Shown: one piece after another, positions 7,703 through 50,293 of the stretch | How the letters are laid out: each line of letters starts with the position of its first letter | Position numbering within the stretch: the stretch's first letter is position 1 | From: an uncultured Clostridia bacterium | GTDB lineage: Bacteria; Bacillota; Clostridia; TANB77; CAG-508 | NCBI GenBank assembly: GCA_904378095.1 | Contig: CAJFHE010000007.1 | Coordinates: 5,457-69,456, forward strand | Length of the DNA: 64,000 nucleotides | Reading direction: 5' to 3' | Position numbers and translations under genes: made by a program | Notes under the pieces: model-generated | Seen by the model: the letters and a program-made list of their open reading frames with translations, nothing else | Told to the model about the DNA's origin: nothing | Databases searched by the model: none

Positions 7703-7741
7703 AAATCTTGTTTTTTTCCTCCGTCCCCAAAAACAAGATTT
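7703..7741 (-). repeat. F1 palindromic element, exact consensus (reverse orientation)
   Basis: AAATCTTGTTTTTTTCCTCCGTCCCCAAAAACAAGATTT starts 1 nt after the M16 stop codon. Confidence 0.9.
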
Positions 7742-7775
7742 TTCAAAGAAAATATGAAGAAAGGATTGATAAAAA

Positions 7776-9459: not shown

Positions 9460-9523
9460 AAGTGTCTATATTAGATAAAAACAGCGGTGACAGGTTTCTA
9501 TGTGCTATAGTTTTAAATAAAGA

Positions 9524-9567
9524 ATGTTACAAAAATGTTACAAAAATATTATTTTTATGTTACAAAT
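9524..9567 (+). promoter_or_regulatory. four phased 11-mers upstream of the pilin genes
   Basis: ATGTTACAAAA ATGTTACAAAA ATATTATTTTT ATGTTACAAAT. TATAAT at 9624-9629 lies downstream. Confidence 0.55.
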
Positions 9568-9649
9568 GCACAAAAAAGCAAAAAATATGTTATTATAATA
9601 TTGCAAAATGAAAAAAAATCATTTATAATGATATAAATGGGGTGAAATA

Positions 9650-10057
9650 GTGAAGAAAACCAGAGCTTTAAAATTAATTCTTATAATAATTACAATATTA
9701 ATTCATGTTTTTATATTTTTCCAGACAAAAGCATATGCTTATGATGAGCTAAAAATAGCATCTGGAATTGTTGACCCAGATGACTATAACCCAGGTTCAC
9801 TTGATGATGCTTTTACAGGTGAAGATAAAATAGTGAATATTGGTTCAACCATAATAACTGTTATCAGAGTAGTAGGAATTATTGTAACAGTAATATGCTT
9901 AATGTTGATAGGAATAAAATATATGATGGGCTCTGTAGAAGAAAAAGCAGATTATAAAAAAAGCATGATTCCATATTTTATTGGAGTATTTATATTTTTC
10001 TCACTATCACAAATCCTACCAGTGATTATTAACTTAGTTAGTGGTATGAATAAATAA
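9650..10057 (+). CDS. VirB2/TrbC-like pilin-type small membrane protein, paralog 1
   Basis: Signal peptide (..KAYA/YD) and a two-TM hairpin with a conserved loop: IKYMMGSVEEKADYKKSMIPYFIG. Confidence 0.5.
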   Translation: MKKTRALKLILIIITILIHVFIFFQTKAYAYDELKIASGIVDPDDYNPGSLDDAFTGEDKIVNIGSTIITVIRVVGIIVTVICLMLIGIKYMMGSVEEKADYKKSMIPYFIGVFIFFSLSQILPVIINLVSGMNK

Positions 10058-10074
10058 AAGGAGTAAATATAGTA

Positions 10075-10473
10075 ATGAAAAAAGGGCTAATTTTAAAAAT
10101 TCTAGTAATTATATTTACTATGCTAAGTATATTTATATTAAGTAGTCATTATGTACAAGCTTCTTCTTTATCAGATGCAATAGGAGGGGCAGATGACTTT
10201 GTACAGGCAGGTGTTCAAGACAAAAGTCCGGCAATAAGTGAAGACAATTTACAAGGAATGTCAGATATGTTATATACTGCATTACTTGTAATTGCGACAA
10301 TAGTTGCAATTATTGTGGGACTTGTAATCGCCATACAGTTCATGACAGGAAGTGTAGGAGAAAGAGCCAAAATCAAAGAAACATTAATTCCATATATAGC
10401 AGGATGTATAGTGATTTTTGGAGCATTTGGCATATGGAAATTAGTAGTAAATATACTAAAACAAGCTCAATAA
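10075..10473 (+). CDS. VirB2/TrbC-like pilin-type small membrane protein, paralog 2
   Basis: Same architecture as paralog 1. Loop is IQFMTGSVGERAKIKETLIPYIAG. Confidence 0.5.
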   Translation: MKKGLILKILVIIFTMLSIFILSSHYVQASSLSDAIGGADDFVQAGVQDKSPAISEDNLQGMSDMLYTALLVIATIVAIIVGLVIAIQFMTGSVGERAKIKETLIPYIAGCIVIFGAFGIWKLVVNILKQAQ

Positions 10474-10543
10474 ATAAGATTTTAATATTATCTCAAAAAA
10501 AGAGATATTAAATATATAAATTATATAAAAGGGAGGAATAAAC

Positions 10544-10924
10544 ATGGCAAAAACTATGAAAATACTTAGTATAATAATAATGATTGCTATGGTATTCACT
10601 GTAGCTTTTGGAACTGTTTCTAATGCAGAGGTGGATTCTGATGCAGTTGTTGAGGGATTATTTACTGGCGGCAGTGCAGATACAACAGGAATACAAGGAG
10701 TTGGAACAAATATAGTTAATATTATTACTACAATAGGAATAATAGTGGCAGTAATCGTATTATTGATATTAGGTATTAAATATATGACGGGAAGTGCATC
10801 AGAAAAAGCTGAGTACAAGAAAACAATGATACCATACCTTGTTGGTGCAGTATTAATATTTGGTGCATCAGCTATTGCTAAAGCTGTAATAGCAATGACG
10901 CAAAGCATCGCAAGTGGAGAATAA
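10544..10924 (+). CDS. VirB2/TrbC-like pilin-type small membrane protein, paralog 3
   Basis: Same architecture as paralog 1. Loop is IKYMTGSASEKAEYKKTMIPYLVG. Confidence 0.5.
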   Translation: MAKTMKILSIIIMIAMVFTVAFGTVSNAEVDSDAVVEGLFTGGSADTTGIQGVGTNIVNIITTIGIIVAVIVLLILGIKYMTGSASEKAEYKKTMIPYLVGAVLIFGASAIAKAVIAMTQSIASGE

Positions 10925-10967
10925 TATTACAAACATATTACAAAAATATTACAATTATATTAAAAGT
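10924..10967 (+). promoter_or_regulatory. four phased 11-mers between pilin 3 and the PrgI-like gene
   Basis: ATATTACAAAC ATATTACAAAA ATATTACAATT ATATTAAAAGT, starting at the pilin-3 stop codon. Confidence 0.55.
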
Positions 10968-10998
10968 GCATTTTTAATGCACTTTTTTTATTTTTTTG
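10962..10998 (+). terminator. intrinsic terminator after the pilin genes
   Basis: AAAAGTGCAT / ATGCACTTTT stem followed by a long T-run. Confidence 0.75.
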
Positions 10999-11064
10999 TA
11001 TCTTTTTATCAAATTATCTGGTATAATATATATTGTATAGATTTAAAACTAAGGAGGAAGGAAT

Positions 11065-11412
11065 ATGGGAACATATAACTTACCAAGGAACGTAAAAGGA
11101 GAAGGTAGAATATTATTTATTTTTACAGGCAAAAGTATGATTTACACAGTTGTAGCGGGAGGAATAGGACTAATATTTTATTTCATTTTATCAGCATTTG
11201 GATTTGGTATGGCAGGAATAATTACAGTAGCATGTTTTGCATTAATTGGTTTCCTAATAGGAACATTAAAAATGCCAAATTTAGAAAAATTCGAATTTGC
11301 TAAAAAAACAGGTGGAGAAAATATAGATGACATTATAAAAAGAGCGATAAAATTTAAAACAAAAGGGAAAAAGATATATATATACAAGGAGGAAGAAAAA
11401 AATGCTAAATAA
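11065..11412 (+). CDS. PrgI/VirB3-like small membrane protein
   Basis: N-terminal YNLPRNVKGEGRILFIFTGKS followed by two TM helices. Positioned just upstream of VirB4. An extended -10 (TGGTATAAT, 11019-11027) lies upstream. Confidence 0.55.
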   Translation: MGTYNLPRNVKGEGRILFIFTGKSMIYTVVAGGIGLIFYFILSAFGFGMAGIITVACFALIGFLIGTLKMPNLEKFEFAKKTGGENIDDIIKRAIKFKTKGKKIYIYKEEEKNAK

Positions 11413-12646
11413 CCCACAAGCACTAGTTTCAATTTTAACAATAGTCATATTTGCTATTGTCATATTAATTGCTGTACTTGCAATAGTATATTTCGCATCA
11501 AGAAACAAAGATAACAAAAAAAAGACAAAGCTAGAAGAAAGCATAGATGGAAAAGCAACAACTCAAAAAGCAAAAACATTTGCAGTAGAGTCTGTAATGG
11601 ACTTTATGGAATTTGATAAAGTAGAAGACAATATGATTGTACAAAAAAATGGAAATAAATACATAATGGTAGTTGAATGCCAAGGAATAAACTATGACTT
11701 GATGTCAGAAATGGAAAAAAATGCGGTAGAGGAAGGATTTATTCAATTCTTAAATACTATAAGACACCCAATACAAATATATGTACAAACTAGAACTCTA
11801 AATCTTGAATCTAGCATACAATCATATAGAGATAAAGTTCAGGCAATAGAAGAAAACTTGAGTAAACAAGAAGCACGTTATAAAGAAATGCAAAGTTCTG
11901 GAAATTATACTAGAGAACAGCTTGACAAAGCGTTTTATGAGCTTACAAAGCAAAGGAATTTAACTGAATATGGAAAAGACATTATATATGATACAGAAAA
12001 AATGAGTTTAAACAAAAATGTATTAAACCAAAAATATTATATAGTAGTTCCATATTATCCAGAAGAGTTAGGACAAAATGATTTTGATAAAGAAGAAATA
12101 AAAAACTTAGCATTTTCTGAATTATATACAAGATGTCAATCAATTATTAGAACACTATCAGCATGTGAAGTTGGAGGCAGAATACTAACATCTAACGAAT
12201 TGGCAGATTTACTATATGTTGCATATAACAGGGATGAGCAAGAAACATATGGAATAGACAAAGCATTACGTGCTGGATATGATGAGCTATACTCTACAGC
12301 GCCAGACGTGTTAGACAAGAAGATGAGAACATTAGACCAAAAAATAGAAGAAGAAGCATTTAACAAGGCAAACGAAAAAGTAATAGAAGCACAATCTGCA
12401 AAGGAAAGAGCTTTACAACGTAAAGAAAACAATATGGATGACTTAATATCACAAATGGCACAATTAATAATTGAGCAAAATAGAACAATTGTTGGAAGCG
12501 ATGTGGCAGATGATGCAATAGCAAGAGTAAAACAAGAAAAGCAAGAGAGAAAACAGCAGAAAGAAGGCAAAACTAAAGAAGGAGGTACAGAAGCAAATGT
12601 CAAGGAAAAAACAACAAAGAGAAGAAGAACAACAAAGAGCGCTTAA
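11402..12646 (+). CDS. membrane-anchored coiled-coil protein of the T4SS-like cluster, function unknown
   Basis: N-terminal TM (ALVSILTIVIFAIVILIAVLAIVYFA), then a domain resembling VirB4 N-terminal regions (IVQKNGNKYIMVVECQGINYDLMSEMEKNAVEEGFIQFL). No Walker motifs. K/E-rich tail. Confidence 0.35.
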   Translation: MLNNPQALVSILTIVIFAIVILIAVLAIVYFASRNKDNKKKTKLEESIDGKATTQKAKTFAVESVMDFMEFDKVEDNMIVQKNGNKYIMVVECQGINYDLMSEMEKNAVEEGFIQFLNTIRHPIQIYVQTRTLNLESSIQSYRDKVQAIEENLSKQEARYKEMQSSGNYTREQLDKAFYELTKQRNLTEYGKDIIYDTEKMSLNKNVLNQKYYIVVPYYPEELGQNDFDKEEIKNLAFSELYTRCQSIIRTLSACEVGGRILTSNELADLLYVAYNRDEQETYGIDKALRAGYDELYSTAPDVLDKKMRTLDQKIEEEAFNKANEKVIEAQSAKERALQRKENNMDDLISQMAQLIIEQNRTIVGSDVADDAIARVKQEKQERKQQKEGKTKEGGTEANVKEKTTKRRRTTKSA

Positions 12647-14582
12647 TGATTATTCAAGACCAGATGAATATGAAATATTAAAAAAGAAAACAATAAAAGA
12701 ATTAATAGCTCCATCTGGAATAGACGCAACAAACATAGATCATTTAGAGATAATTTCTAATGTGACAAGGTATGCAAGAAGCTTCTTTGTATCTACATTG
12801 CCAAGAATGTGTACTTTCCCAGAATTGTTTAGAGACATGTATTTGTTTGGAGATATAAACACATCAATATATATAAACCCAATTCCAGAGTCAAGGTCAC
12901 AAAACGAATTAAATAGAGTAATAAATGAGCTAGAAACAGAAAGAATAGTGGCTGCAGATAGGGGAAACATAAATAGAGAAAGTGACTTAGGACAAAAAAG
13001 ATTAGAGGCAGAGCAACTAAGAGACGAAATAGCAGCAGGTTATAATAAATTATATGAAGCCTCTGTTATATCTACATTATTTGCATACAACTTAGAAGAT
13101 TTAGACAGATTTACAAAATTATTATCAACAGAAATGTCTAAATCATTAGTTGGAATAAAAAGTGCATGGGGAATGCAAGAAGAAGCATTTAAATCAAACT
13201 TACCATTAATGGAAGATAAAATAAGAAAAACACATACATTTGACAGAAGGTCAATGGGAACAGTATTTCCATTTACTACATCAGAGGTAGGACATCAAAC
13301 AGGAATACCACTAGGAATAAACAAACAAACTGGAGTGCCAATCTTGTTTGATAACTTCCATAGCTCACTTTCAAACTACAATATGGTTATATTTGCTAAA
13401 TCTGGTGCTGGTAAATCAGTAACAATGAAAACACTAATTTCAAGGTCTGCAGTGCTAATGGGTGTACAAAGCTTAGCACTTGATGCAGAAGGCGAGTATA
13501 GTATAGTGGCAGAAAGTTTAGGTGGAGTAAATGTAGTAATTAGCCCAAACTCAAAAACAGTAATCAATATATTTGATATAGAAACAGAAATAGTAAAAGA
13601 CGAAATAACAGGTAGAGATAGACTAGTACTTAATGTAGAGAACAAAGTAGAAGACGTTACACAAGCTTTGCTTACAATGGCAAAAGGTAGTACAAGAAGT
13701 GAGGAGGTAAATGAGCTTACAAAACAAATTATAGCAGAATCTGTTGCAGAAGAATATGCTGCACGAGGAATTAACAATGACCCAAATAGTCTATATGAGT
13801 CATCGAGGGGAGAACTAGGAAACAGCAACAATATGCTAGGAAGAAAGAAAAAAGAAATGCCAACAATAGGCTCTTGGTATAAAAGAATTCAAAAGAAAGC
13901 AGATGACAATACGAACCCAGACTATAACTTCCACTATAGTTATTTGTTAAAAGTTATGAAGCAATACATAAGAGAATTTGATGGACAAATGGCATACTTT
14001 GATGGACAATCTACATTTGATTTATTAGAAGGCACACTTTTTATAAACTTAGACATATCACAACTAGAAGAAAAATTTGCAAGACCACTTGCACAACAAA
14101 TACTACTAGAGTGGATTTGGGAAAAATATGTTAAGAAAAACAGTGAAGATAGAACAAAAGCTGCTAAAAAAAGAGTGTTAGTTGATGAGGCATGGATGTT
14201 ACTTCCATTCCCAGAAGCAGTAGACTTTTTAAACACTATGGCAAGACGTGCTAGAAAAAGAAATGTATCACTTGCAATTATTTCACAAAGATTTCAAGAC
14301 TTCTATGAAAAACCAGAAGCACAAGCAGTGCTTACATCATCAGATACAAAATTATTCTTAGCACAGGATAAATCTGAAATACAATATTTAAAAGAAGTAT
14401 TTAAACTAAGCGAAGGTGAAGCAAATTTCTTAGTAACATGCTTAAAAGGCGAAGGTTTATTAAAAGTTGGTGGAGATAGTGCAATTATACAAATAAGACC
14501 AACAGCAAAAGAATTTGAATTTGTTGAGACAAACCTAAATAAACTAATGCAAAAAGACAGAAGAAAGAGAGCTAATTTTTAG
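12597..14582 (+). CDS. VirB4/TrsE/PrgJ-family T4SS ATPase
   Basis: Walker A FAKSGAGKS (13404-13418), Walker B RVLVDEAWMLL, IISQRFQDF. GGAGG lies 9 nt before the ATG. Confidence 0.88.
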   Translation: MSRKKQQREEEQQRALNDYSRPDEYEILKKKTIKELIAPSGIDATNIDHLEIISNVTRYARSFFVSTLPRMCTFPELFRDMYLFGDINTSIYINPIPESRSQNELNRVINELETERIVAADRGNINRESDLGQKRLEAEQLRDEIAAGYNKLYEASVISTLFAYNLEDLDRFTKLLSTEMSKSLVGIKSAWGMQEEAFKSNLPLMEDKIRKTHTFDRRSMGTVFPFTTSEVGHQTGIPLGINKQTGVPILFDNFHSSLSNYNMVIFAKSGAGKSVTMKTLISRSAVLMGVQSLALDAEGEYSIVAESLGGVNVVISPNSKTVINIFDIETEIVKDEITGRDRLVLNVENKVEDVTQALLTMAKGSTRSEEVNELTKQIIAESVAEEYAARGINNDPNSLYESSRGELGNSNNMLGRKKKEMPTIGSWYKRIQKKADDNTNPDYNFHYSYLLKVMKQYIREFDGQMAYFDGQSTFDLLEGTLFINLDISQLEEKFARPLAQQILLEWIWEKYVKKNSEDRTKAAKKRVLVDEAWMLLPFPEAVDFLNTMARRARKRNVSLAIISQRFQDFYEKPEAQAVLTSSDTKLFLAQDKSEIQYLKEVFKLSEGEANFLVTCLKGEGLLKVGGDSAIIQIRPTAKEFEFVETNLNKLMQKDRRKRANF

Positions 14583-14591
14583 GGGGAAGAA

Positions 14592-17186
14592 ATGAAAAAG
14601 ATAACTAGTAAAAAAGGAATGCAAAAAATAGTAATAGCAATAGTAATAGTGTTATCATTTAATTTTATAGTACCAAACTATTCTCAAGCAGACTTTGGTG
14701 GAACGTTAGCTGGACCAATCATTGATTTTGTGGCTGCTATAGGAGATGCAGTCTTATCGGCGCTTCAATTTTTTATGTATGATGGAGGTGCTTCTACATC
14801 AGGAACGTTTCAGGTTACAAATATCTTTGGCTCGTTTTTACTTTCTTCAAGTAAAGCAACAGAGGATGAGCTAGAGGCAAAAGGAATAGCACCTGACGGA
14901 GAAGTAGAAATCACTATAGATTCAGAAGAATTTGATAAAGGTTGGAGAGCAGCTTTAACATTTGGACTTCTTGAAAAAGATTATTCAATACCAATTGTAA
15001 AATACACACCAGAGGCAATATTTGGCAATAGAGTTCCAGCACTTGATGTAAACTTTATTAATCCTACAGATTGGACAGAAAAATATGGCGATGATGTCGG
15101 CGGAGCAATGAACGAAAGGTCTATTACACAAGATCTTCATTCGATAATTGCTAATTGGTATGTGGCTTTAAGAAACTTAGCTATAATTGCATTACTATCA
15201 GTACTATTATATGTTGGTATTAGAATGGTAATTTCAAGTACTGCCTCAGACAAAGCAAAATATAAGCAAATGCTAATGGATTGGATAGTAGCATTATGTA
15301 TAGTATTCTTCTTACATTATATTATGTCTTTTATATTGACTTTAACAGAAATGATAACAGAAGGAATAGGAGAGGGAAGTGCAATAACTGTAGCAATAGA
15401 AGATGGAGATAATAACCCTGACAATAACGTAAAATTTAATACTGATTTAACCGGATTGTGTAGGTTGCAAATACAATATAAAGAATTAGGGGCCAGATTA
15501 ATTTATTTAATATTCTATCTTGCATTAGTAATATATACTGTAATGTTTACATGGACATATGTAAAAAGGGCAATTACTATGGCTTTCCTAACACTCATGG
15601 CACCATTAGTTGCTATAACATATCCAATAGATAAAATAAACGATGGAAAATCGCAAGCATTTAATATCTGGCTTCGTGAATTTATATTTAACGCATTATT
15701 GCAACCATTTCATTTGATAATTTACACAATTTTCCTAGGTTCTTCAATGGAAATAGCAATTAAAAACCCAATTTATGCAATATTGTTCTTAGCATTTATT
15801 ATACCATCTGAAAAATTATTAAAAAAGATGTTCGGATTTGATAAATCAAATACAGCAGGTGGTATGAGTACGGCGGCAAGCTTATTAGGTGGAGCAGCTG
15901 TAATGAAAGGTGCTAGAAGCTTAATAGGTAAGGCAGGAAAATCTGGAGGAAGTTCTGGAAGTAAGGGAATAAGAACTAAAAATCCTGTTACAAGCTCAAA
16001 TACACCGTCAATATCTGATGCATTTGGAAATGGAAGTAATCAAACTGTGCATACAGCAAATACTGGTACAACAGGGTCTGGCGCAAGAGCAACTACATCA
16101 AACTCAAATTCGCGAGGAGGAGCAACACTTGGAAATGGAACTGCTGGATATACTGGTAACGGCTCTGAATATATGACAGCTGGAGGAGTTATATTACCTA
16201 ATGGACCAGAAGAGCCATCAACACCATCACAAATATCGCAAACACCTCAAGGTGCAAGACTTGACCAACAAACTGCACAAGATACTAGAAGTACATGGCA
16301 AAGACTAAAAGATGATGATACAAATCGTGGATTAGGTCAATGGTTAAAAGAAGAAACAAAGATGGGAAGAAGATATACAAGTGCGAAAAATTCAATTAGA
16401 AATATTGCCAATGCTCCTTCAAGAGGATATAACGCATTATTAAATAAAATGCCAAAGCCAGTAGCAAAAACAATAAGGGGAGCAGTAGGGGTAGCAGGAC
16501 ATGCTGCGGCCTCGACAGCCAAATTCGCTGCTAAAGCTGCAGTCGGAGGAACTTTAGGCTTGGCAGCAGGTATTGCAGGTGATGACTTAGAAGATGTATT
16601 TACATATGGAGCAGCAGGAGCAGCTTTAGGAGTAGCTGGATTACCAGTGATAGGGAGAGGCATTGCTTCTGGGGCTAATAGATTAAGAAGTACATATGAA
16701 ACAAAAGCCTTTGGAGCTTCTGAAGCAGCAAGAAGACAGCAAGATAGAGAAATGATGCAGAACGACGACTGGAGAAGCGAAATGAATGAAAATTATACAT
16801 CTATATATGATACAATTCCAACTGCTAGTCAAAGTGAGAATTTCGCAAAGTCTGCCTTAGATTACTATGATGCTGGAATTACGGACTCTAAAGAAATAGG
16901 AAAGAGTATGAAATTCGAAAAAGAACTTAGAGAACAAATGATAGATGCAGGAACTCCTGATAAAGAGGCCGAAGAATTGGCGAAAAAACAAGCAATAGTA
17001 ATCTCAAAGATTGCAAATGACCCTAAAATTACAGAAAGATTAACTAATGAAGGTAAAAGGAAGGATTTAAAAGAAGAATTTGTAAGAACGCTAAAAGCTT
17101 CGGGTATGGATGAAAAGGGAGCAGTAAAAAATGCAGAAGGCATGATCGGATTATTAATGAAGAGAAAAGGACTAAGTCCAGATTAA
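14592..17186 (+). CDS. VirB6/TrbL-like polytopic membrane protein with long G/S/T-rich and glycine-zipper C-terminal extension
   Basis: Signal-like N-terminus and at least 6 TM helices (aa about 190-400). Lies directly after VirB4, as in ICEBs1/Tn916-type modules. The tail has AAKAAVGGTLGLAAGIAG and YGAAGAALGVAGLPVIG segments. Confidence 0.45.
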   Translation: MKKITSKKGMQKIVIAIVIVLSFNFIVPNYSQADFGGTLAGPIIDFVAAIGDAVLSALQFFMYDGGASTSGTFQVTNIFGSFLLSSSKATEDELEAKGIAPDGEVEITIDSEEFDKGWRAALTFGLLEKDYSIPIVKYTPEAIFGNRVPALDVNFINPTDWTEKYGDDVGGAMNERSITQDLHSIIANWYVALRNLAIIALLSVLLYVGIRMVISSTASDKAKYKQMLMDWIVALCIVFFLHYIMSFILTLTEMITEGIGEGSAITVAIEDGDNNPDNNVKFNTDLTGLCRLQIQYKELGARLIYLIFYLALVIYTVMFTWTYVKRAITMAFLTLMAPLVAITYPIDKINDGKSQAFNIWLREFIFNALLQPFHLIIYTIFLGSSMEIAIKNPIYAILFLAFIIPSEKLLKKMFGFDKSNTAGGMSTAASLLGGAAVMKGARSLIGKAGKSGGSSGSKGIRTKNPVTSSNTPSISDAFGNGSNQTVHTANTGTTGSGARATTSNSNSRGGATLGNGTAGYTGNGSEYMTAGGVILPNGPEEPSTPSQISQTPQGARLDQQTAQDTRSTWQRLKDDDTNRGLGQWLKEETKMGRRYTSAKNSIRNIANAPSRGYNALLNKMPKPVAKTIRGAVGVAGHAAASTAKFAAKAAVGGTLGLAAGIAGDDLEDVFTYGAAGAALGVAGLPVIGRGIASGANRLRSTYETKAFGASEAARRQQDREMMQNDDWRSEMNENYTSIYDTIPTASQSENFAKSALDYYDAGITDSKEIGKSMKFEKELREQMIDAGTPDKEAEELAKKQAIVISKIANDPKITERLTNEGKRKDLKEEFVRTLKASGMDEKGAVKNAEGMIGLLMKRKGLSPD

Positions 17187-17209
17187 TTAAATAAATGGAG
17201 GCTACAATT

Positions 17210-18157
17210 ATGAATAGATTTATTAGATTTTTTAACCAAAACAGAATTAGGATAATAGTAACTATTTTAATTGTAGTCTTTATTATACTAATCATACAAG
17301 TTATAAATTATATATTAAAACAACAAGATGACAATGTTGTACCAACAGAGCCAGAGATAGTTGATACAAGTAGACCAAGTGAATCTGTAATATCTGGTGA
17401 CGAATTGCCAGAAGAGATTACTGATACTAACTTGAATGTTATCAGCCAGTTTGTAGAATATTGCAATAATAAGCAGTACCAAAATGCGTATGATTTATTA
17501 ACACAAGACTGCAAAGATGAGCTATTTGGCACCTTGGATTTGTTTGTATCAAATTATTGCAATCAAATATTTACTTCTCCAATGACATATCAATTAGAAT
17601 TGTGGTATGCAGCAGCTAGCACATATACATATAGAATCACATACTTTTCAGACAATTTACTAGCAACAGGAAATGCCACACCAACTAACACAAAAGACGA
17701 TTATATAACAATTATAAGCAGTAGAGATGGAGATAAATTGAATATAAACAATTTTGTGGAAAAAGAAGAGGTAAATAATTCAACTACAGCAGAAGAAGTA
17801 CCTATTACAATAGCAATTAATGACAGATATACTTATAAAGATTATGAAATTTATAATATAACAATAAGCAACAATACAGATAAAACTATTTTGATAAGTG
17901 ATGGGGTAAATAGTAATGATATTTGCCTAGTAGATACCAATGAGGTAGAGTACAATTCTATATTAAATGAAGTTCCATTGGTAAACCTAGAATTAGAGCC
18001 AGGAATATCGAAAACAATAGAAATACGCTTTAACAAGATGTATAACTTATATAGGACAATAGACCATATGTCTTTTAAAAATATTATATTAGACAAACAA
18101 ACATATGAACAAAATGCTGAAAATGCGGCAAGAGTTAGTATAAATATAGATATTTAA
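17210..18157 (+). CDS. bitopic membrane protein, NTF2-like plus Ig-like ectodomain (candidate VirB8/TcpC analogue)
   Basis: Single N-terminal TM. ISQFVEYCNNKQYQNAYDLLTQDCKDELF is typical of NTF2/SnoaL-like lipoprotein domains. ATG 17210 follows GGAGG. Confidence 0.35.
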   Translation: MNRFIRFFNQNRIRIIVTILIVVFIILIIQVINYILKQQDDNVVPTEPEIVDTSRPSESVISGDELPEEITDTNLNVISQFVEYCNNKQYQNAYDLLTQDCKDELFGTLDLFVSNYCNQIFTSPMTYQLELWYAAASTYTYRITYFSDNLLATGNATPTNTKDDYITIISSRDGDKLNINNFVEKEEVNNSTTAEEVPITIAINDRYTYKDYEIYNITISNNTDKTILISDGVNSNDICLVDTNEVEYNSILNEVPLVNLELEPGISKTIEIRFNKMYNLYRTIDHMSFKNIILDKQTYEQNAENAARVSINIDI

Positions 18158-18168
18158 CGGAGAGAAGT

Positions 18169-20976
18169 ATGAGTGAAGATAATAACAATAATAATCAAAA
18201 CAATTCTGTAAATGATAATGGCGAATTCGAAAAAATAGATAGAAATCGTTTAAGAGGTAATATAGGGGAAGAAGAAGAAAATGTAGCAAATAATGAGCAG
18301 CCTGAGGAGCAAGAGGTAGAAAACGAAACCAAGCAAGATGATAAGCTTAATGCTCAAGACATGCAGCAAATAGCAAAATCTGGAGCCAGCCTAGCAAAAA
18401 ACGCAGCAACTGGCAATGTGGTGGGCGCAGCAAAAGATGCTCTAAACCTTGCAAAAAACAAAAAGGTAAGAAACAAAATGATTAGGCATGCAATCATACA
18501 ATTTGCTGGACCCTTTCTCCTTATCTTATTCTTAGCAGCTGCAATATTCGGAATATTTGGAGCAGTAGCAGACACAGTAGGAGAAGTCCTGGAAGGTATA
18601 GGTCAAGCTATAGTAGACTTTTTTACAGTCGATGAATCTGATGGAGCAATAATAATATCTGATGAGCAGATAGATACTATTATAAATTCTATTGAGGAGC
18701 AAGGAATAAGTACAGAAGATTTAAAGCTACTTGGGGACTATGAAGAGAATGCATCTGAAGCAGAAAAGCAAAGAGCAGTTAGAAAATATATAAGAAAATT
18801 CTATGAAGCACAAGCATTAACAGAAACCCTAAATTATTATCACTATGATTCGACAAATGATACTACATTCGGAGCGATATATGTGTACAGAGCAAATGGA
18901 GATGTAAATGAAGACATTTCAAATAGAGAAGAAATAACATATATTTCGTATGATAAAATGCAAGAGATGATAGCTAATAACAACATAGAAGCAGCAAAAC
19001 ATTTTAGTATAGATGATTCGGAAAACCTAGTTGTTGCCTCATATAGTGAAACTATAGTACAAAATTCTAATGGGCAAGATAATAGTCATACATATACAGT
19101 AAGTTCAAGAACAATTAATTATAAATCTTTAGTATCACAATATACAACAAAGATGAACTTTTTAATAGATTTGACATTAATATCACAAAATCCTGAGTTT
19201 GTTTCGGCAGTAGTTGACTTGATTAAAGATAGTAGAATAGAAATAACAATAATGGATAATACAACGACAAATGTAAAAACAGTGACAAATAGTTATACTT
19301 TAAATGTACATGTTGAGGCAGACCGTGGAGCGACACCAGGAACATCGGGAAGTTACTATAATGTTGATGATTCATATGAAAGAACATCATCGACTACAAC
19401 TACAACAATAACAAGGACTCCATCTATTCAAATTAATTATGTAAAAACATGGTTTTGTGAGCAAAGAAAGAATTATACCAAAGATATAGATGGACCAAAT
19501 GAAATTTCTAATGTTACAACACATCCAGCAGATGAAGCACAGCCAGAAGGTGACGGAAGCTGGAAAACTAATCAAACAACCACAACAGTCGAAACTAGTA
19601 CAACAGAAAGCTACAAAGACGTAGGAAGTGGCGAAGGCTTAGTATTTACTTTAGGAGAGCAAGGCGATGGAGAAAGATATGAAAATGGAGAAATAGACGA
19701 GCCAACATTTGTAGGATTAATGGAAACAGAATATAGAATACCATATTCAACAAGGGAAGAAGCGGCAGGAACTAATTTAATAAGTGGCGCAGAAATGTTA
19801 TTCTACTTATTGCAAAAAGACCCAGACCTAGAGAATATGGAAATAATTATGAGGTATGCATTTAATCAATACCTAGGATATGAAAAGTATGAGGTTACTT
19901 TAGATGGAAGCATATTTGAGATAAAGGATTTTGTACCATTAAATTCTAGTGGCTCAAGTGATGATTTATTGTTAGAATATATTGGGTATTGGGAGTCAGG
20001 CCCAAATGGACCAAAGAAAAATGCAGATGGAACCAAATATATTATTATAGACGATGGTGTCGGCAACTTAGCAGTAGGCCATGGAGTAGATATTTATAAT
20101 AGTGGAATGGCGTACAAGTTTATCGAAGCAGGATATACTATAGCAGAAGGGGCAGAAGTAGATATAGAATTTGTTGATGCAATAAAATTAGAAATTCTGC
20201 AAAGAAACAAAAATGATGTGAATGCATTGGGATTAGACTTAACAGGATATCAGTTTAATGCTTTAGTATCATTTTGCTATAACTGCGGAAGCACAAGTGA
20301 TTTTAAAACAGCATATAATGCATACTGGAATCAAGAAAGAGACGACAAGTTTGAAGAAAAGGATCCAAATGCAGATTTAACACATCAATTATATACACAA
20401 TATTTTTCACAATACATACATGCAGGAGATCAGGTTTTGCAAGGATTGATAAGACGCAGAAGATCTGAATGGACATTATTTCAGACAGGATATTATGATG
20501 TGTTGAATAAATGGCACCCAGATAGCGGTGATTTAACTGGTGATAGTCAAATTGAAGATGGATATTTTGCATATCCATGTCCAGGACATACATGGAGTAC
20601 ATATTCTGGCCATGAGGGAATAGATATAAGTTGGCCTGGTTGTGAAGGTGAGCCAGTATATGCTGCACAAGCCGGAACAGTATCACTTGTACAAACAGGA
20701 CATGTAAATAATCAAGGAAGTAGCGGTATGGCATCTTATGGTAATTGCGTATTTATTCAGCATGAAAATGGTTGGGAGTCAAGATATGCGCATATGACAT
20801 CAGTAGTCGTATCACAAGGTGAGCATGTAGAGCAGGGGCAACTATTAGGATATATTGGAAATACCGGAAATTCTTATGGTGCCCACCTACATATTTCATT
20901 ATATGACCCATCAGGAAATGAAGGCAGTGGATCACGAAACTGGGCAGAAATTGCTTGGCCACAATATAGAGGATAA
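18169..20976 (+). CDS. bifunctional cell-wall hydrolase: GH24-type lysozyme plus M23 (LytM) endopeptidase, membrane anchored
   Basis: TM at aa about 105-130. Lysozyme-like YWES...GVGNLAVGHG...YQFNALVSFCYNCG. M23 motifs HEGIDIS (20611) and GNTGNSYGAHLHISL. Confidence 0.8.
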   Translation: MSEDNNNNNQNNSVNDNGEFEKIDRNRLRGNIGEEEENVANNEQPEEQEVENETKQDDKLNAQDMQQIAKSGASLAKNAATGNVVGAAKDALNLAKNKKVRNKMIRHAIIQFAGPFLLILFLAAAIFGIFGAVADTVGEVLEGIGQAIVDFFTVDESDGAIIISDEQIDTIINSIEEQGISTEDLKLLGDYEENASEAEKQRAVRKYIRKFYEAQALTETLNYYHYDSTNDTTFGAIYVYRANGDVNEDISNREEITYISYDKMQEMIANNNIEAAKHFSIDDSENLVVASYSETIVQNSNGQDNSHTYTVSSRTINYKSLVSQYTTKMNFLIDLTLISQNPEFVSAVVDLIKDSRIEITIMDNTTTNVKTVTNSYTLNVHVEADRGATPGTSGSYYNVDDSYERTSSTTTTTITRTPSIQINYVKTWFCEQRKNYTKDIDGPNEISNVTTHPADEAQPEGDGSWKTNQTTTTVETSTTESYKDVGSGEGLVFTLGEQGDGERYENGEIDEPTFVGLMETEYRIPYSTREEAAGTNLISGAEMLFYLLQKDPDLENMEIIMRYAFNQYLGYEKYEVTLDGSIFEIKDFVPLNSSGSSDDLLLEYIGYWESGPNGPKKNADGTKYIIIDDGVGNLAVGHGVDIYNSGMAYKFIEAGYTIAEGAEVDIEFVDAIKLEILQRNKNDVNALGLDLTGYQFNALVSFCYNCGSTSDFKTAYNAYWNQERDDKFEEKDPNADLTHQLYTQYFSQYIHAGDQVLQGLIRRRRSEWTLFQTGYYDVLNKWHPDSGDLTGDSQIEDGYFAYPCPGHTWSTYSGHEGIDISWPGCEGEPVYAAQAGTVSLVQTGHVNNQGSSGMASYGNCVFIQHENGWESRYAHMTSVVVSQGEHVEQGQLLGYIGNTGNSYGAHLHISLYDPSGNEGSGSRNWAEIAWPQYRG

Positions 20977-20986
20977 ACTAAAAGTC

Positions 20987-21030
20987 AGTGAAACACTGGT
21001 GATAGTTTTAAAACTGTCACCTTGTTTCAT
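20987..21030 (+). repeat. F2 nested-hairpin element
   Basis: AGTGAAACACTGGTGATAGTTTTAAAACTGTCACCTTGTTTCAT. Inner stem GGTGA(T)AG/CTGTCACC, outer stem TGAAACA/TGTTTCA. Lies 11 nt after the hydrolase stop. Confidence 0.7.
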
Positions 21031-21059
21031 TATATAAAATTATTATGTGAGGAGTAAGT

Positions 21060-22385
21060 ATGAAAATTAAGAAAATAATAATAATATTAATTGTAATTCT
21101 ATTAATTTTAGGGACAGTACTTGCAATATTATTAATAAGTAAAAAAAATACTGAGTATGGCTCTGTTAATGTCCAAGCAGATTTATCAGATATAATTAAC
21201 CAACAAATAACTGAAGTTACTGATATAAATAATTATTATATAGTTAAAAATTATATTAATAGATATTATTTGTACTTAACTAAAACTTCAAATGAAAATG
21301 TGATTACAGCTGAGCCGATTACAACAGAAGAGCAAGAAAGTATTAACAAACAGGCAGTATATAGTATGTTAGATACAACATATATTAATAGTACAAGTTT
21401 AACTGTAGATAATATTTTCAATAATATAGAGCAAATTGATGAATCAACAGTTATAATAGATAAAATGTATTTTGCCCCAATGACTACCAATATGTCAATA
21501 TATCTAGTATCTGGTAAAACAATCGCAGAAGCTACGTCAGAAGAAAAAGAATTCAAAATAATAGTAAAAATGGATATGGCAAATAAAACGCTAAGTTTAA
21601 TTTTAGGAGAAATGGCAGAAGAAATTTTCGATACTAACAGGCTAGGAGATACCTTAAATATTGACACAGAAACAACAATAGAGCCAAATGATTATAACCA
21701 ATATGAATATAACAACATATCCACTGATGAATATATTACAGACATGTTTAATGAATATAAGACATACCTAATTAGCTATAGAGAAGAAGCATATTCGAGA
21801 TTGGACAATGAGTATAGCAGTAAGAAGTTTGCAAATTTTGAAGAATTTAATGAATTTGTAGCACATAAAATAAAGAGCATTGTAATTGCAAAGGCAGATA
21901 AAGTTAGAACAACACAGTATGGAAATTATACACAGTACATAATTAATGACCAATATGGAAATTCATACATTTTTAGAGAAAATGCTGTAATGGACTTTGA
22001 TGTTATTTTAGATGTATATACAGTAGAAATACCTGAGTTAACAGAGCAATATAATAACTCTACAGATGCAGAAAAAGTGTTGATGAATATTCAAAAAGTA
22101 TTTTATGCTATAAATGATGGGGACTATAATTATGTATATAATAAATTAGACAATACATTTAAGCAAAATAATTTCCCTACACTAGAAAGCTTTGAGACAT
22201 ATATGAAAAGCAATTTCTATGAAAATAACAGTATAGGATATTCAAATTATAGAACTAGTGGTAATTTACATATTTATGATATTAGCATAACAGATGCAGA
22301 CAACGAGGAAAGTACTACGGTTACTAAAAATTTCATAATGCAACTATTAGATGGAACAGATTTTGTAATGTCATTTAATGTATAA
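21060..22385 (+). CDS. bitopic membrane protein with NTF2-like segments (second candidate VirB8/TcpC analogue)
   Basis: N-terminal TM. AEKVLMNIQKVFYAINDGDYNYVYNKLDNTFKQNNF is an NTF2-like signature. Confidence 0.3.
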   Translation: MKIKKIIIILIVILLILGTVLAILLISKKNTEYGSVNVQADLSDIINQQITEVTDINNYYIVKNYINRYYLYLTKTSNENVITAEPITTEEQESINKQAVYSMLDTTYINSTSLTVDNIFNNIEQIDESTVIIDKMYFAPMTTNMSIYLVSGKTIAEATSEEKEFKIIVKMDMANKTLSLILGEMAEEIFDTNRLGDTLNIDTETTIEPNDYNQYEYNNISTDEYITDMFNEYKTYLISYREEAYSRLDNEYSSKKFANFEEFNEFVAHKIKSIVIAKADKVRTTQYGNYTQYIINDQYGNSYIFRENAVMDFDVILDVYTVEIPELTEQYNNSTDAEKVLMNIQKVFYAINDGDYNYVYNKLDNTFKQNNFPTLESFETYMKSNFYENNSIGYSNYRTSGNLHIYDISITDADNEESTTVTKNFIMQLLDGTDFVMSFNV

Positions 22386-22402
22386 CAAAATAGAGGTAAA
22401 TA

Positions 22403-23728
22403 ATGAAGAATAATAAAAGAGAAGAAGTAATAAATAATATGCTTAAACTCAGAGAAAGTTTAAGTGAAGGTCTTAAGGAGAACAATCAAGAAATTGAAAA
22501 CATTGGATATTATAAAGACTTTAGATTTAAAGGCACACAATTTGGTGTTAATGATGCTTTTGTTGTAAAAATAAAAGATGATTCTGTACCACAAAAAGAA
22601 ATGGAGCCACGAGAAGCTGAAGAAAAGTATATTTATGAAATATACGATAAAGACAACAACTTGGTTGCAACAGTAGATATCGAAGGAAATGTTAGCTTTG
22701 CGCCTGAATATTTTGAAGGTATGGATGATGCATATTTAGAGGCTCTTGATTTGGAAAATGCGGAGTTTGAGTTGCCAGAAGAGTTAGAAAAAGATGATTT
22801 GGTTTTGACAAAAGGTGAACTAGATGAAATCCAAAACAGTAGAAGAATAGAAGATGTTTCTAAAAAAATCGGAAAAGAAGAAATCAGCTCATATTCTGAG
22901 ATGAAAACAGATCAAAAACCCCTATTTGACAAAATTACAAATAAGCAAGAAATAGACCCAAATACAAGAGTAACGCAAACCGAGACATTGGCTGACATGA
23001 TTCCAGAGCTAAAAGAAAAAGGAATAGTAAAAGTTGGTGTGGTATATTCAGACCATAGCAAAGGCCAAAGCGGTAGATTCTCATTTGTAGGAATTGATAA
23101 AGATGGAAATATACAGAAAATAGACAGTTTGCAGAATATAGAAGGTGCTACAACAGGACAAACAGTAACTTCTATAAATAGTACAGATGGAAGTGTTGTA
23201 GAGCAAGAGCAAGTTGCAGGCATGGTTAGAATTAATGAAAGAAGTAAAGCAAATGGAGAAGAGGAATATTTATCTGTAAAAGTAGGAAACTATGGAATAC
23301 TAGAAGTAGACTATGTAAGAGCAGATTTAAGTAAAGACAAAGACGAAAGATATTTGTCAGCTCCAATTGAAACTCAAAATATGAAACCTACTACAAGAGA
23401 AGTACGCGAGTTTATGGATAAATCAAAGAATACTGATATTTCAGAAGAAATAGAAAGAGCAAATCCAGAAATCGATAGAGATGATGATACACAAATGCAA
23501 AATATTGACGATACTGCAGGTAATGATGAAGTGACACCGGATGATATAATAGTTCTTGAAGATGGAACTAAAACCACATTAAGGCTAGAAGCGGCAAAAG
23601 ATAAAGTATCGCCAGAAGAATTTACAAGAAGGTATAATGAGAATGCAGGGAAAACGCCTGATGAAAAGATTGATAATCTACATGATGAAATAGAGGAAGA
23701 ATTTGGAGCGCCAAGTAGAAATAGATAA
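22403..23728 (+). CDS. acidic soluble protein, unknown function (last gene of the T4SS-like cluster)
   Basis: 441 aa with no TM or signal peptide, D/E-rich. RBS GAGG lies upstream. Confidence 0.5.
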   Translation: MKNNKREEVINNMLKLRESLSEGLKENNQEIENIGYYKDFRFKGTQFGVNDAFVVKIKDDSVPQKEMEPREAEEKYIYEIYDKDNNLVATVDIEGNVSFAPEYFEGMDDAYLEALDLENAEFELPEELEKDDLVLTKGELDEIQNSRRIEDVSKKIGKEEISSYSEMKTDQKPLFDKITNKQEIDPNTRVTQTETLADMIPELKEKGIVKVGVVYSDHSKGQSGRFSFVGIDKDGNIQKIDSLQNIEGATTGQTVTSINSTDGSVVEQEQVAGMVRINERSKANGEEEYLSVKVGNYGILEVDYVRADLSKDKDERYLSAPIETQNMKPTTREVREFMDKSKNTDISEEIERANPEIDRDDDTQMQNIDDTAGNDEVTPDDIIVLEDGTKTTLRLEAAKDKVSPEEFTRRYNENAGKTPDEKIDNLHDEIEEEFGAPSRNR

Positions 23729-25666: not shown

Positions 25667-25750
25667 ATTTTTTTAATTCGTTATTATTTCAAATCGCAAA
25701 TCACCATATTCCCTAAGTTTTACCTACAAAAAGTGCTAAAATCATTGAAA

Positions 25751-25794
25751 ATATTACAAAAATGTAATATAATTGTAATATGAGCGTTACATAA
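25751..25794 (+). promoter_or_regulatory. phased 11-mer array / palindrome upstream of the adhesin gene
   Basis: ATATTACAAAA ATGTAATATAA TTGTAATATGA GCGTTACATAA. Includes the palindrome ATATTACA-AAAA-TGTAATAT. Confidence 0.5.
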
Positions 25795-25949
25795 AAAACA
25801 TAAATTAAAATATGAATATCCGTAGGCATTATTTTACTTAAATTTAATCATATGGAAAATAAGGAAAATATTGATATTGACTTAGTTACAAAAAATAAGT
25901 AAAATATATAATATATGATATTAAAAGGATTAAAAGGATGGGGAAAAAT

Positions 25950-49369: not shown

Positions 49370-49457
49370 GCGTATGGAGTCACTTGGTAAGTGGCTCTAT
49401 TTTTTTGCTTGGAAATTCAAAAAGTACTTGTATAATTTGACGAAATGTGATATAAAT

Positions 49458-50261
49458 ATGGCAAAAGTTAATAAGAAAGGTGAATTTTTTGTGGAAGATA
49501 ATAAAGTAGAAGAAGCAAAAAAAACAATATTAATTGTTGATGATGAAAAATCTATTGTTGATATCATTATATATAATTTGGCAAAAGAAGGTTATAAAAC
49601 AATAGAAGCATATGATGGGGAAACGGCAATAAATATGGCCTTTGAGCAAAAACCAGATTTGATTTTATTGGACATAATGCTTCCTAAAGTAGATGGACTT
49701 ACTGTGTGTAAACGTGTGAAAAACTCTTTAAATATACCAATTATTATGATATCTGCAAAAGGTGAAGAAATTGATAAAATACTCGGATTAGAGTTAGGTG
49801 CAGATGACTATATAACAAAGCCATTTAGTGTTAGAGAGCTAGTCGCAAGAGTTAAAGCTAATTTAAGAAAGGCTGAAGTTAATAATCAAAAAGATGCAAT
49901 ATCAAACAATAATCAAAATACTAGTGCTCATTCTGGAGATAAAGTAATCTCTGTTGGAGAATTATATATAAATTTAGATAAATTTGAAGTAAGAGTAAGA
50001 AATAAGCCAATAGATTTGACATTAAGAGAGTTTGAAGTATTAAGATATTTAGCAAATCAACCAGGACAAGTAGTTACTAGAGAAGATTTACTAGAAAAAG
50101 TCTGGGGTTATGAATATTATGGTGATATTAGAACAGTAGATGTTACAATTAGAAGAATAAGAGAAAAAATAGAGCAAGATACATCAAGTCCTAAATTATT
50201 AATTACTAAAAGAGGAGTAGGATATTATTTATCATCAAAGGAAAAGGAGAATAATGGTTAG
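49458..50261 (+). CDS. OmpR-family response regulator (start uncertain: ATG 49458 or GTG 49491)
   Basis: ILIVDDEKS...DLILLDIMLPKVDG...KP receiver, with a winged-helix output domain (RTVDVTIRRIREKI). GGTGA RBS lies before GTG 49491. Confidence 0.85.
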   Translation: MAKVNKKGEFFVEDNKVEEAKKTILIVDDEKSIVDIIIYNLAKEGYKTIEAYDGETAINMAFEQKPDLILLDIMLPKVDGLTVCKRVKNSLNIPIIMISAKGEEIDKILGLELGADDYITKPFSVRELVARVKANLRKAEVNNQKDAISNNNQNTSAHSGDKVISVGELYINLDKFEVRVRNKPIDLTLREFEVLRYLANQPGQVVTREDLLEKVWGYEYYGDIRTVDVTIRRIREKIEQDTSSPKLLITKRGVGYYLSSKEKENNG

Positions 50262-50284
50262 CAATTAATAATTGCTAACCATTA
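50252..50284. other. perfect 33-bp palindrome spanning the response regulator stop codon
   Basis: TAATGGTTAGCAATTA-A-TAATTGCTAACCATTA. Confidence 0.9.
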
Positions 50285-50293
50285 AAAGTAGAT

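Follow-up and report, generated by a model that had tools for sequence, protein, structure and literature searches.

A cluster of eleven co-directional open reading frames (ORFs) occupies positions 9650-23728 of the forward strand in a 64,000-nucleotide stretch of contig CAJFHE010000007.1, which comes from an uncultured Clostridia bacterium of the TANB77 lineage; this whole stretch is hereafter called the window. Spaced by -50 to +140 nt, the ORFs encode parts of a type IV secretion system (T4SS). We consider it probable that the cluster is a fixed, vertically inherited derivative of the mating-pair formation (MPF) type MPF-FATA without adjacent transfer genes, whose main product is a surface filament or conduit for contact. 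The inventory of eleven genes drawn up in an initial annotation of the window proved correct, with every ORF present where it had been placed. The genes are listed below, where dN/dS is the ratio of nonsynonymous to synonymous substitution rates, TM stands for transmembrane, and group A is one of four VirB4 identity classes (A to D) described further on.

9650..10057, + strand: VirB2/TrbC-like pilin 1, 135 aa (PF18895 E 4.9e-8, PF04956 E 5e-7; dN/dS 0.22-0.40)
10075..10473, + strand: VirB2-like pilin 2, 132 aa (PF18895 E 4.6e-6; 29-35% identity to its paralogues)
10544..10924, + strand: VirB2-like pilin 3, 126 aa (PF04956 E 9e-11, PF18895 E 7e-10)
11065..11412, + strand: PrgI/VirB3-like small membrane protein (PF12666 E 1.4e-7; dN/dS 0.06-0.16)
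11402..12646, + strand: TrsD/TraD-like protein, 414 aa (one N-terminal TM segment and a VirB4-N-like domain)
12597..14582, + strand: VirB4 ATPase, 661 aa (Pfam P-loop_TraG, DUF87 and AAA_10; the only ATPase of the cluster)
14592..17186, + strand: VirB6-like polytopic protein, 864 aa (about 6-7 TM segments; pilin-like hairpin, low-complexity linker and C-terminal domain)
17195..18157, + strand: p320, bitopic NTF2-like and beta-sandwich protein, VirB8-type candidate (AlphaFold2 pLDDT 85)
18169..20976, + strand: bitopic wall hydrolase, 935 aa (Phage_lysozyme (GH24) and Peptidase_M23; conserved N-terminal part)
21060..22385, + strand: p441a, bitopic protein with three tandem NTF2-like domains, VirB8/TcpC/OrfG-like (AlphaFold2 pLDDT 88)
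22403..23728, + strand: p441b, acidic soluble protein, 441 aa (103 D+E vs 59 K+R; no TM segment; group A only)

The three pilins, recognized as such from the beginning, belong to the T4SS_pilin and TrbC(VirB2) families of Pfam, share 29-41% mutual identity, and are each predicted to carry a signal-like N-terminal segment and two TM segments. The PrgI/VirB3-like assignment is likewise borne out by its match to PF12666, and PrgI was found in 77 of 82 loci. The protein at 11402-12646, formerly described as a TM coiled-coil protein, is now read as TrsD/TraD-like. It aligns to positions 44-388, the N-terminal third, of the NCBIfam model VirB4_plasma (Mbov_0397, the VirB4 of a Mycoplasma integrative and conjugative element, ICE; E 7e-10) and weakly to the TrsD/TraD model (E 1e-3), and these two matches identify it as a TrsD-type "split VirB4 N-domain"; its homologue in locus L001 carries the Pfam TraC-like domain, PF26593. 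The two-gene split between TrsD and VirB4 is kept in all loci, together with the overlap of the two genes. In VirB4 itself, a Walker A (SGAGKS) and a Walker B (VDEAW) motif can be read in the sequence. The protein scores 203 bits against the CD1110 family and 188 bits against the Mycoplasma VirB4 in NCBIfam, both under the equivalog cut-offs, and its profile matches Thermoanaerobacter VirB4 (4AG5, E 6e-39) as well as TrwK in the PDB. The original VirB4 call, made on the two Walker motifs, is thus upheld by Pfam, NCBIfam and the 4AG5 profile match.

Among the proteins encoded after VirB4, the 864-aa protein had been called VirB6-like. Its polytopic topology and position fit this label, whereas profile support is weak: a T4SS_pilin-like hairpin is matched in 27 of 32 orthologues and TrbL_4 in two, pLS20_p028 is reached at E 4e-3, all of them weak hits, and the alignment profile has no meaningful sequence match in the PDB. 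We therefore keep the VirB6 name as a weak assignment based on position, topology and these hits. In some group D genomes (L072, 11925-18000; L086, 11560-17243), the VirB6/pilin-like family has expanded: in place of VirB6 there are 4-5 paralogues in tandem, about 340-550 aa long, and every one of them has a pilin-like hairpin. Two bitopic NTF2-like proteins had also been proposed, and both folds appear in AlphaFold2 models built with database homologues. The p320 model comprises a TM helix, an NTF2-like domain and a beta-sandwich, and finds generic NTF2 domains only in Foldseek, with NTF2-like N-domains of PBP2a/PBP5 at E 1e-3. For p441a, the best Foldseek matches include the VirB8-like OrfG of ICESt3 (7PKW, E 6e-4) and TcpC of pCW3 (3UB1, E 3e-3), which supplies the proposed likeness to VirB8 and TcpC. 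The TM-scores are low because the models are multi-domain, and the alignment profiles of p320 and p441a retrieved nothing meaningful from the PDB. The acidic soluble character of p441b is confirmed by its composition and the lack of a TM segment.

The wall hydrolase, in which Pfam confirms the GH24 lysozyme and M23 domains noticed earlier, is the most modular component. In 59 species, at least 11 wall-lytic or esterase domain families occur at this position while the N-terminal membrane part is retained. The C-terminal domains include Phage_lysozyme2 (24), M23 (11), glucosaminidase, NlpC/P60 and CHAP (8 each), C39-like (5), GDSL esterase (4), GH24 lysozyme (3) and M15 (2), and also 3D, Hydrolase_2 and alpha/beta hydrolase. 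Catalytic modules differ even where the VirB4 proteins of two species are 93% identical. The swapping of so many families at one position resembles polymorphic toxin loci, and the interchangeable lytic domains could be taken for polymorphic effectors of contact-dependent antagonism or effector export, in which the channel would bring wall-degrading or other toxins to nearby bacteria or into the surroundings. We find this very unlikely: the hydrolase is membrane-anchored with a conserved N-terminal part, like the VirB1-type enzymes PrgK, TraG and CwlT, no immunity-like small genes come after it, and known interbacterial-killing and effector T4SSs require a type IV coupling protein (T4CP; PMC12857230).

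The initial annotation saw no relaxase, coupling ATPase, recombinase or replication/partition gene in the window, and Pfam scans of its main ORFs agree, with no match to any of these functions. Neither relaxase, T4CP nor recombinase is present inside the cluster in any of 82 loci, and no relaxase domain occurs among the annotated flank families of these loci. Across 80 species, no relaxase, T4CP or recombinase lies within 10 kb of the cluster, except for a tyrosine integrase beside the pilins in a single species locus (L058, 4896-6095). The ORFs of 82 loci were also scanned with the strict Walker-A pattern GxxxxGK[ST], which does not cover the AxxxxGK[ST] variant of VirB4 in the window itself, and no unexplained large P-loop protein came up. 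A search for att-like direct repeats on the two sides of the cluster detected none; it returned a hairpin like the repetitive extragenic palindromic (REP) type, a duplicated terminator and regulator boxes. A ParA-like ORF at 59285 was considered as a partition gene and discarded, since it is followed by MinE and a RodA/FtsW-family gene and so reads as MinD. The ParAB genes beside the cluster in group B are part of a chromosomal mnmE-mnmG-rsmG-parAB block.

These absences bear on the possibility that the cluster is a conjugation channel acting in trans, that is, a shared mating bridge for a relaxase, T4CP and origin of transfer located elsewhere, on the chromosome or on resident mobilisable elements. 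Mycoplasma-like chromosomal transfer is the model for such shared-bridge conjugation. The best NCBIfam matches of the pilins and the TrsD region are Mycoplasma ICE families, where VirB4 scores its 188 bits; the nearest plasmid relatives are typed as "non-mobilizable" by MOB-suite, suggesting unrecognised relaxases; and the L058 integrase stands next to pilins. In addition, T4CP genes often lie far from virB4 (PMC12102498). Against this stand the lack of relaxase, T4CP and recombinase in the scanned ORFs of the window and near the cluster in 80 species, L058 excepted, as well as a VirB4 conservation above that of housekeeping genes and a strict synteny, both atypical for element-borne MPF genes. 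On balance, we judge conjugation in trans to be unlikely.

The distribution of the cluster was followed in a one-genome-per-species scan, which gave 113 matches, 80 of which were kept as loci from at least 80 species. All are metagenome-assembled genomes of uncultured Clostridia from human (Hadza, Nepal, Brazil and others), rabbit, roe deer and mouse, and the complete chromosomes among the carriers measure 1.55-1.8 Mb. Close VirB4 homologues number thousands in gut metagenomes. In a library clustered at 50% identity, VirB4 forms an isolated clade with one further representative at 65% and the next at 41% or less. The cluster ORFs had been described as long and uninterrupted, and all eleven are intact here and in at least 80 species, with the core order pilins-PrgI-TrsD-VirB4-VirB6-NTF2 protein-hydrolase kept throughout. 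Four VirB4 identity classes coincide with distinct chromosomal contexts (PBP, penicillin-binding protein; SSB, single-stranded DNA-binding protein):

Group A: VirB4 at least 89% identical; PALP-GH25/LysM-M16-M16-Spo0E, cluster, PBP, as in the window
Group B: VirB4 about 82% identical; jag-mnmE-mnmG-rsmG-parA-parB, cluster, ABC transporter; origin-proximal
Group C: VirB4 70-74% identical; variable flanks
Group D: VirB4 66-70% identical; SpoIIP-PGI-TraX-SSB-like-M23, cluster, S1-domain protein

Within group A, the cluster diverges together with its flanks. Pairwise distances of VirB4 and TrsD correlate with those of M16 at r 0.62 and r 0.73, respectively (Mantel p about 5e-4), about as tightly as the distances of M16a and M16b correlate with each other (0.73), and the dS of cluster genes is similar to that of the flanks. 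An independent test relied on metagenome loci retrieved through M16b alone, 50 of which were informative. Cluster genes stand beside the M16 pair in 43 of these 50: the T4SS machinery lies directly downstream in 35, and the p320-hydrolase-p441a module lies upstream of the pair in eight. Three loci, L117 among them, have nothing but pilin genes downstream, and four have none. The context is stable within each genus-level group, and the cluster co-diverges with its flanks and shows deep vertical conservation with occasional relocation or loss, unlike the patchy distribution of an ordinary ICE. The p320-hydrolase-p441a block is found upstream of the pilins in group B loci L027, L030, L045 and L052 and upstream of the M16 pair in another lineage (L128-L142, M16b-anchored), and by these block moves the cluster behaves as at least two movable sub-modules. 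Mobile DNA has also inserted nearby and left the cluster undisrupted: an IS21-type pair (rve and IstB) between Spo0E and the pilins in L001/L014 (4195-6364), the tyrosine integrase of L058, and IS110 and PD-(D/E)XK transposases adjoining the cluster in L064 (3959-6367).

Selection on the cluster was estimated by comparing the window genes with those of eight group A species. dN/dS is below 1 for every gene measured, with values that are approximate because dS is near saturation: 0.03-0.07 for VirB4 and 0.05-0.20 for the neighbouring PALP and M16 genes; 0.06-0.16 for PrgI, 0.11-0.19 for TrsD and 0.15-0.48 for the pilins; 0.27-0.54 for VirB6 and 0.21-0.44 for p320; and 0.33-0.76 for the hydrolase and 0.24-0.70 for p441a. 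VirB4 is 90-95% identical across group A, where M16a is 63-84% identical. The VirB4 motor is thus more constrained than its housekeeping neighbours, and the exposed parts are fast-evolving. This purifying selection supports the earlier claim that the cluster is maintained.

Conserved regulatory signals accompany the cluster. The relevant features of the window are as follows.

9520..9570, + strand: array of TGTTAC/TTACAA repeats at 11-nt spacing, with the exact WalR consensus TGTWAH-N5-TGTWAH, just upstream of the promoter-like site
9601-9629, + strand: promoter-like site, sigma-70-like, TTGCAA-17-TATAAT
10920..10991, + strand: second WalR-type array, overlapping an intrinsic-terminator-like hairpin (10962-10986) at the boundary of the pilin and machinery operons
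49374..51727, + strand: WalRK/VicRK-like two-component system outside the cluster, recognized by Pfam; candidate regulator of the boxes

A 51-nt repeat-bearing segment occurs twice, at 9520-9570 and 10920-10970. The WalR consensus, as quoted in PMC9210968, has seven matches in the window against 1.3 expected, a number reached in none of 100 shuffles, and five of the seven fall in the two cluster arrays and upstream of a thioester adhesin gene. Of 23 group A species, 19 have a strict box in the 300 nt before the first pilin gene and 22 have one between the pilins and PrgI; the upstream box is present in 10 of 19 group D species and in none of 24 group B species. The 11-nt repeats were also considered as PhoP boxes, a reading abandoned because they match the WalR consensus exactly. 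The kinase encoded in 49374-51727 has a HAMP-PAS-HisKA-HATPase architecture and VicK as its best PDB match (4I5S, E 5e-56). Its partner, encoded at 49374-50261, is an OmpR-family response regulator closest to RegX3, MtrA, VicR and YycF, with an N-terminal extension of roughly 50 residues; a 91-aa ORF lies just upstream of the regulator ORF. From these sequence features we infer that a WalR-type regulator controls the cluster, which would couple a wall-breaching machine to cell-wall homeostasis.

The box upstream of the adhesin gene (25938-30269) is TGTAATATAATTGTAAT at 25763, in segment 25747-25797, next to a near-consensus promoter at 25745-25773, and the adhesin gene and the T4SS cluster may be co-regulated in this genome. 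The proposal that the T4SS serves the adjacent thioester adhesin is not supported, as the two are neighbours in a single genus-level group. Elsewhere the cluster adjoins ParB/ABC-transporter or SSB/S1-protein genes, so a conserved coupling to the thioester adhesin and alpha-2-macroglobulin genes was rejected.

Where did this cluster come from? Its nearest outside relatives have VirB4 proteins 35-43% identical to the one described here and share the pilin-PrgI-TrsD-VirB4-VirB6 backbone, and they are mobile elements or plasmids:

L084: element with a 1030-aa T4CP, an HTH regulator and a tyrosine integrase
L087 and L089: elements with a dnaN-like gene, RadC and an Eco57I-like helicase/methylase
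L172: module with a T4CP, S1-domain proteins and SSB
Plasmids of 134-169 kb: C. botulinum p12/29 (NZ_KT897275.1) and C. beijerinckii (NZ_CP107023), VirB4 43% identical

The mobile relatives have one pilin gene, compared with three or four in the chromosomal clusters, and a VirB6-homologous gene of 987 aa after VirB4. A hydrolase and NTF2-like proteins lie downstream in two of these loci, and profile-level relatives of p320 are located downstream of the T4SS in mobile elements. The closest plasmid-borne relatives are the C. botulinum plasmids p12/29 and L090/L091 (134-143 kb), to which MOB-suite gives the type "non-mobilizable", so any relaxase there would come from an unrecognised family. The gene order of the cluster had been compared to that of ICEBs1/Tn916, a likeness that we replace by the MPF-FATA type (pGO1/pIP501, TrsC-TrsD-TrsE) and large Clostridium plasmids, which fit better. 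The MPF-FATA features, assigned by profiles and folds, are a FATA-type VirB4, PrgI and TrsD upstream of it, NTF2-fold bitopic proteins and a bifunctional hydrolase.

Intactness, synteny, purifying selection, conserved boxes, and mobile relatives that possess T4CP and integrase all lead to the reading that the cluster is, as judged from sequence comparison, a domesticated descendant of a plasmid or ICE MPF module of the TrsD-containing MPF-FATA type and not a decaying ICE. Pilin multiplication and loss of adjacent transfer genes appear to have accompanied this domestication. The initial annotation had offered a domesticated T4SS for non-conjugative use and a decayed ICE remnant as alternatives. 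A remnant without present function would account for the local absence of relaxase, T4CP and integrase, for the loss of the machinery at its site in a few genomes and for a locus with two pilins (L117). It is contradicted by eleven ORFs intact in at least 80 species, dN/dS below 1 throughout with VirB4 at 0.03-0.07, the conserved regulatory boxes and co-divergence with the genome, and we regard it as scarcely credible; intactness, co-divergence, selection and the boxes favour domestication for a non-conjugative use.

The flanks of group D deserve separate consideration. They contain TraX (of a pilin-acetylase family), a 210-aa SSB-like protein with an N-terminal extension, a divergent M23 peptidase and an S1-domain protein (for example L070, 5498-6133; L066, 14379-15152; L065, 19820-20845; also L086). 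A conserved 342-aa protein without family match (c34) also flanks the cluster in group D loci and could be an unrecognised DNA-processing protein. S1-domain and SSB genes accompany the T4SS in the conjugative relatives L172 and C. botulinum p12/29 as well, and it is plausible that the SSB-like, TraX and S1 genes of group D are leftovers of the ancestral element.

The same genes enter into another explanation, in which the cluster is a DNA uptake or exchange machine whose channel and pilus capture DNA, or dock to cells of the same species, and import DNA that is then handed to ComEC-type or other importers of the cytoplasmic membrane. A VirB4 as sole ATPase, pilins and the lack of a nearby relaxase follow the minimal logic of ComB and Ced (PMC12857230; PMC12102498), VirB4 has a weak NCBIfam match to CedD, and the genes next to the group D cluster include TraX, an S1-domain gene and an SSB-like gene with two OB folds. 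Like the present system, Helicobacter pylori ComB and archaeal Ced are T4SS-derived, host-encoded and fixed, with no relaxase or T4CP. They differ in having one pilin, another envelope and demonstrated DNA import, whereas nothing ties the cluster described here to DNA, and they show neither pilin amplification nor shuffling of hydrolase domains. Moreover, SSB and S1 genes are typical of ancestral conjugative elements and so may be leftovers, and they are not beside the cluster in groups A-C, this window included. Hence, DNA uptake seems to us rather unlikely.

We return to the reading of the cluster as a machine for contact. WalR-type boxes would drive two operons, one of pilin genes with strong termination and one of machinery genes, and the three signal-peptide-bearing pilins would be inserted into the membrane. 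VirB4, docked on PrgI(VirB3), TrsD and VirB6, would extract and polymerise the pilins. The NTF2-fold bitopic proteins would form a wall-spanning scaffold, like the VirB8-like TcpC/OrfG, and the membrane-anchored hydrolase would open the peptidoglycan. The resulting filament or conduit would be a sequence-variable organelle that attaches to, and possibly exchanges with, host or neighbouring cells. A filament is put forward as the main product on the grounds that there is no local coupling protein, that the pilins form an array and that evolution is fast in the exposed parts. A contact organelle appears the most likely function in the light of two analogues, Bartonella Trw and the Patescibacteria T4SS; in both, a T4CP-less system with a variable array of pilins has been interpreted as serving adhesion or contact (PMC12857230, PMC12102498).

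Several points weigh against this proposal. The pilus and any substrate are inferred from genes, and the VirB6 and VirB8 labels derive from topology, position, weak profiles and predicted folds with modest Foldseek scores. The near saturation of dS also blurs the selection estimates. A T4CP and a relaxase could lie elsewhere in these genomes of about 1.5-1.8 Mb, just as Patescibacteria T4CP homologues are usually distant from virB4 (PMC12102498), and the group D SSB-like and S1 genes could mean residual DNA handling. Furthermore, the machinery is missing at the M16 site in the related genomes L114, L115, L120 and L168, and L117 (13000-15000) retains just two pilin genes, followed directly by the PBP gene, so that the system is dispensable or relocatable in some lineages. 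The L117 arrangement looks like a deletion scar; L114, L115, L117 and L120 belong to a sub-lineage with M16b 70-74% identical.

Comparison with known systems helps to place the cluster. The T4SS of Patescibacteria is chromosomal, relaxase-less and MPF-FATA-derived, and has TrsD, PrgI and VirB2 arrays; it is often situated close to oriC, and one species cannot grow as an epibiont without it (PMC12857230; PMC12102498). Patescibacteria such as Southlakia epibionticum resemble the present case in being monoderm, in having TrsD, PrgI/VirB3, VirB4, VirB6 and lysozyme/peptidase genes as well as tandem divergent VirB2-like pilins, and in the chromosomal location and vertical inheritance of a system with no nearby relaxase; the frequent origin-proximal position recurs in group B, where the cluster follows parB. 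Unlike Patescibacteria, the host here is a spore-former-type Clostridia with Spo0E and SpoIIP genes nearby, and its cluster encodes clear NTF2/VirB8-like proteins, which are mostly undetected in the candidate phyla radiation. Given that the nearest VirB4 relatives belong to Clostridium plasmids and ICE-like elements, domestication was probably independent of that in Patescibacteria. Bartonella Trw is derived from a conjugative plasmid, has no coupling protein, and has amplified variable pilins that are proposed to form variable adhesion pili and not to act in translocation; the adhesion it mediates is specific to the host (PMC12857230). Plasmid-type ancestry, lack of a local T4CP and amplified variable pilin genes are thus common to Trw and the cluster. 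Trw differs in its diderm envelope, VirB7/9/10 outer-membrane core and amplified VirB5, whereas the system here has a monoderm envelope, no VirB5 and a large modular wall hydrolase. In the modules of pGO1/pSK41/pIP501 and of large Clostridium plasmids, the backbone runs in the same order, from small membrane proteins through TrsC/PrgI, TrsD and VirB4 to a polytopic protein, a bifunctional wall hydrolase and NTF2-like proteins. Those modules have a single pilin-like gene and are carried by plasmids or ICE-like elements that also encode T4CP, integrase or other mobile-element functions; the present cluster is chromosomal and syntenic across species, with a multiplied pilin and no local transfer genes.

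The concept of a co-opted, relaxase-less T4SS is already known. According to a 2025 review, nearly all known functions of Gram-positive T4SSs are DNA transfer, VirB2 and VirB5 are absent from Gram-positive T4SSs save those of Patescibacteria, and Patescibacteria are unique among monoderms in having potential conjugative-type pili (PMC12857230). A literature search for the TANB77 clade together with T4SS returned nothing relevant, and no paper describing this system was found. What appears to be new is the Clostridia lineage, a traceable plasmid-type path with pilin amplification and hydrolase shuffling, and the WalR-type boxes. The cluster would be a second, apparently independent monoderm case, this time from genuine Clostridia that are frequent inhabitants of the guts of humans and animals. 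The evolutionary path would lead from a plasmid- or ICE-type ancestor with one pilin and a T4CP to a fixed cluster with three or four variable pilins and no nearby transfer genes, providing a comparative system for the role of T4CP-less monoderm T4SSs and for the domestication of conjugation machines. It also flags a putative, strongly conserved surface organelle in poorly known gut microbiota. A bolder extension, which we hold as tentative and rather unlikely, is that a clade of abundant small-genome gut Clostridia independently turned a plasmid-type conjugation machine into a core-genome VirB2-type pilus apparatus needed for a partner- or host-dependent life, a Bacillota counterpart of the essential Patescibacteria T4SS. 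In that event, no true Firmicutes would have been shown before these to make T4SS pili for a purpose other than conjugation.

Annotation of the window confirms that housekeeping genes bracket the cluster, as first described: it is preceded by the M16 peptidase pair and a Spo0E-like gene and followed by genes for an S11 PBP (D-Ala-D-Ala carboxypeptidase), tRNA-Gly and tRNA-Cys. Across the AT-rich window, GC ranges over 0.26-0.36 and the strand bias is uniform. A base-composition island was looked for and dismissed, since the GC of the cluster (0.31-0.36) is inside the range of the other coding stretches of the window and gives no island signature. An Rfam scan of the window detected the two tRNAs only, and no riboswitch, such as one for cyclic di-GMP, before the pilins.

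Two families of short repeats are found in and around the cluster. The first is a terminator-containing repeat, of which one copy is

20986..21027, + strand: 42-nt repeat with a terminator hairpin, second copy at 23905-23946, 88% identical

and the pair brackets p441a and p441b, suggesting that this module is separately terminated or was once duplicated. The second is a hairpin-forming repeat of 39-43 nt (AAATCTTGTTTTTGGGGACGGAGGAAAAAAACAAGATTT) with three intergenic copies, at 7703-7745, 23962-24000 and 25159-25197, one of them inverted, which looks like either a REP element or miniature inverted-repeat transposable element, or a shared terminator. Two of its copies flank the PBP gene, and the program-called ORF at 23786-25204 reads through both, which gives it repeated "NLVFGDGGKKQD" ends.

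Elsewhere in the window, a YgjP-like metallopeptidase ORF at 729-1220 (- strand) covers profile positions 56-203 of 207 and may be N-terminally truncated; it is the sole candidate noticed for the frame-disrupted housekeeping genes, three according to the initial annotation, and no systematic check of such genes was made. The products of the region at 25938-38101 are a surface protein of 1443 aa with thioester and DUF11 domains, an Ig-like protein, a membrane protein resembling CmpB, a GGDEF-domain response regulator and a bacterial alpha-2-macroglobulin of 1644 aa, the gene for which stands out in a Clostridia-type, presumably single-membrane genome.

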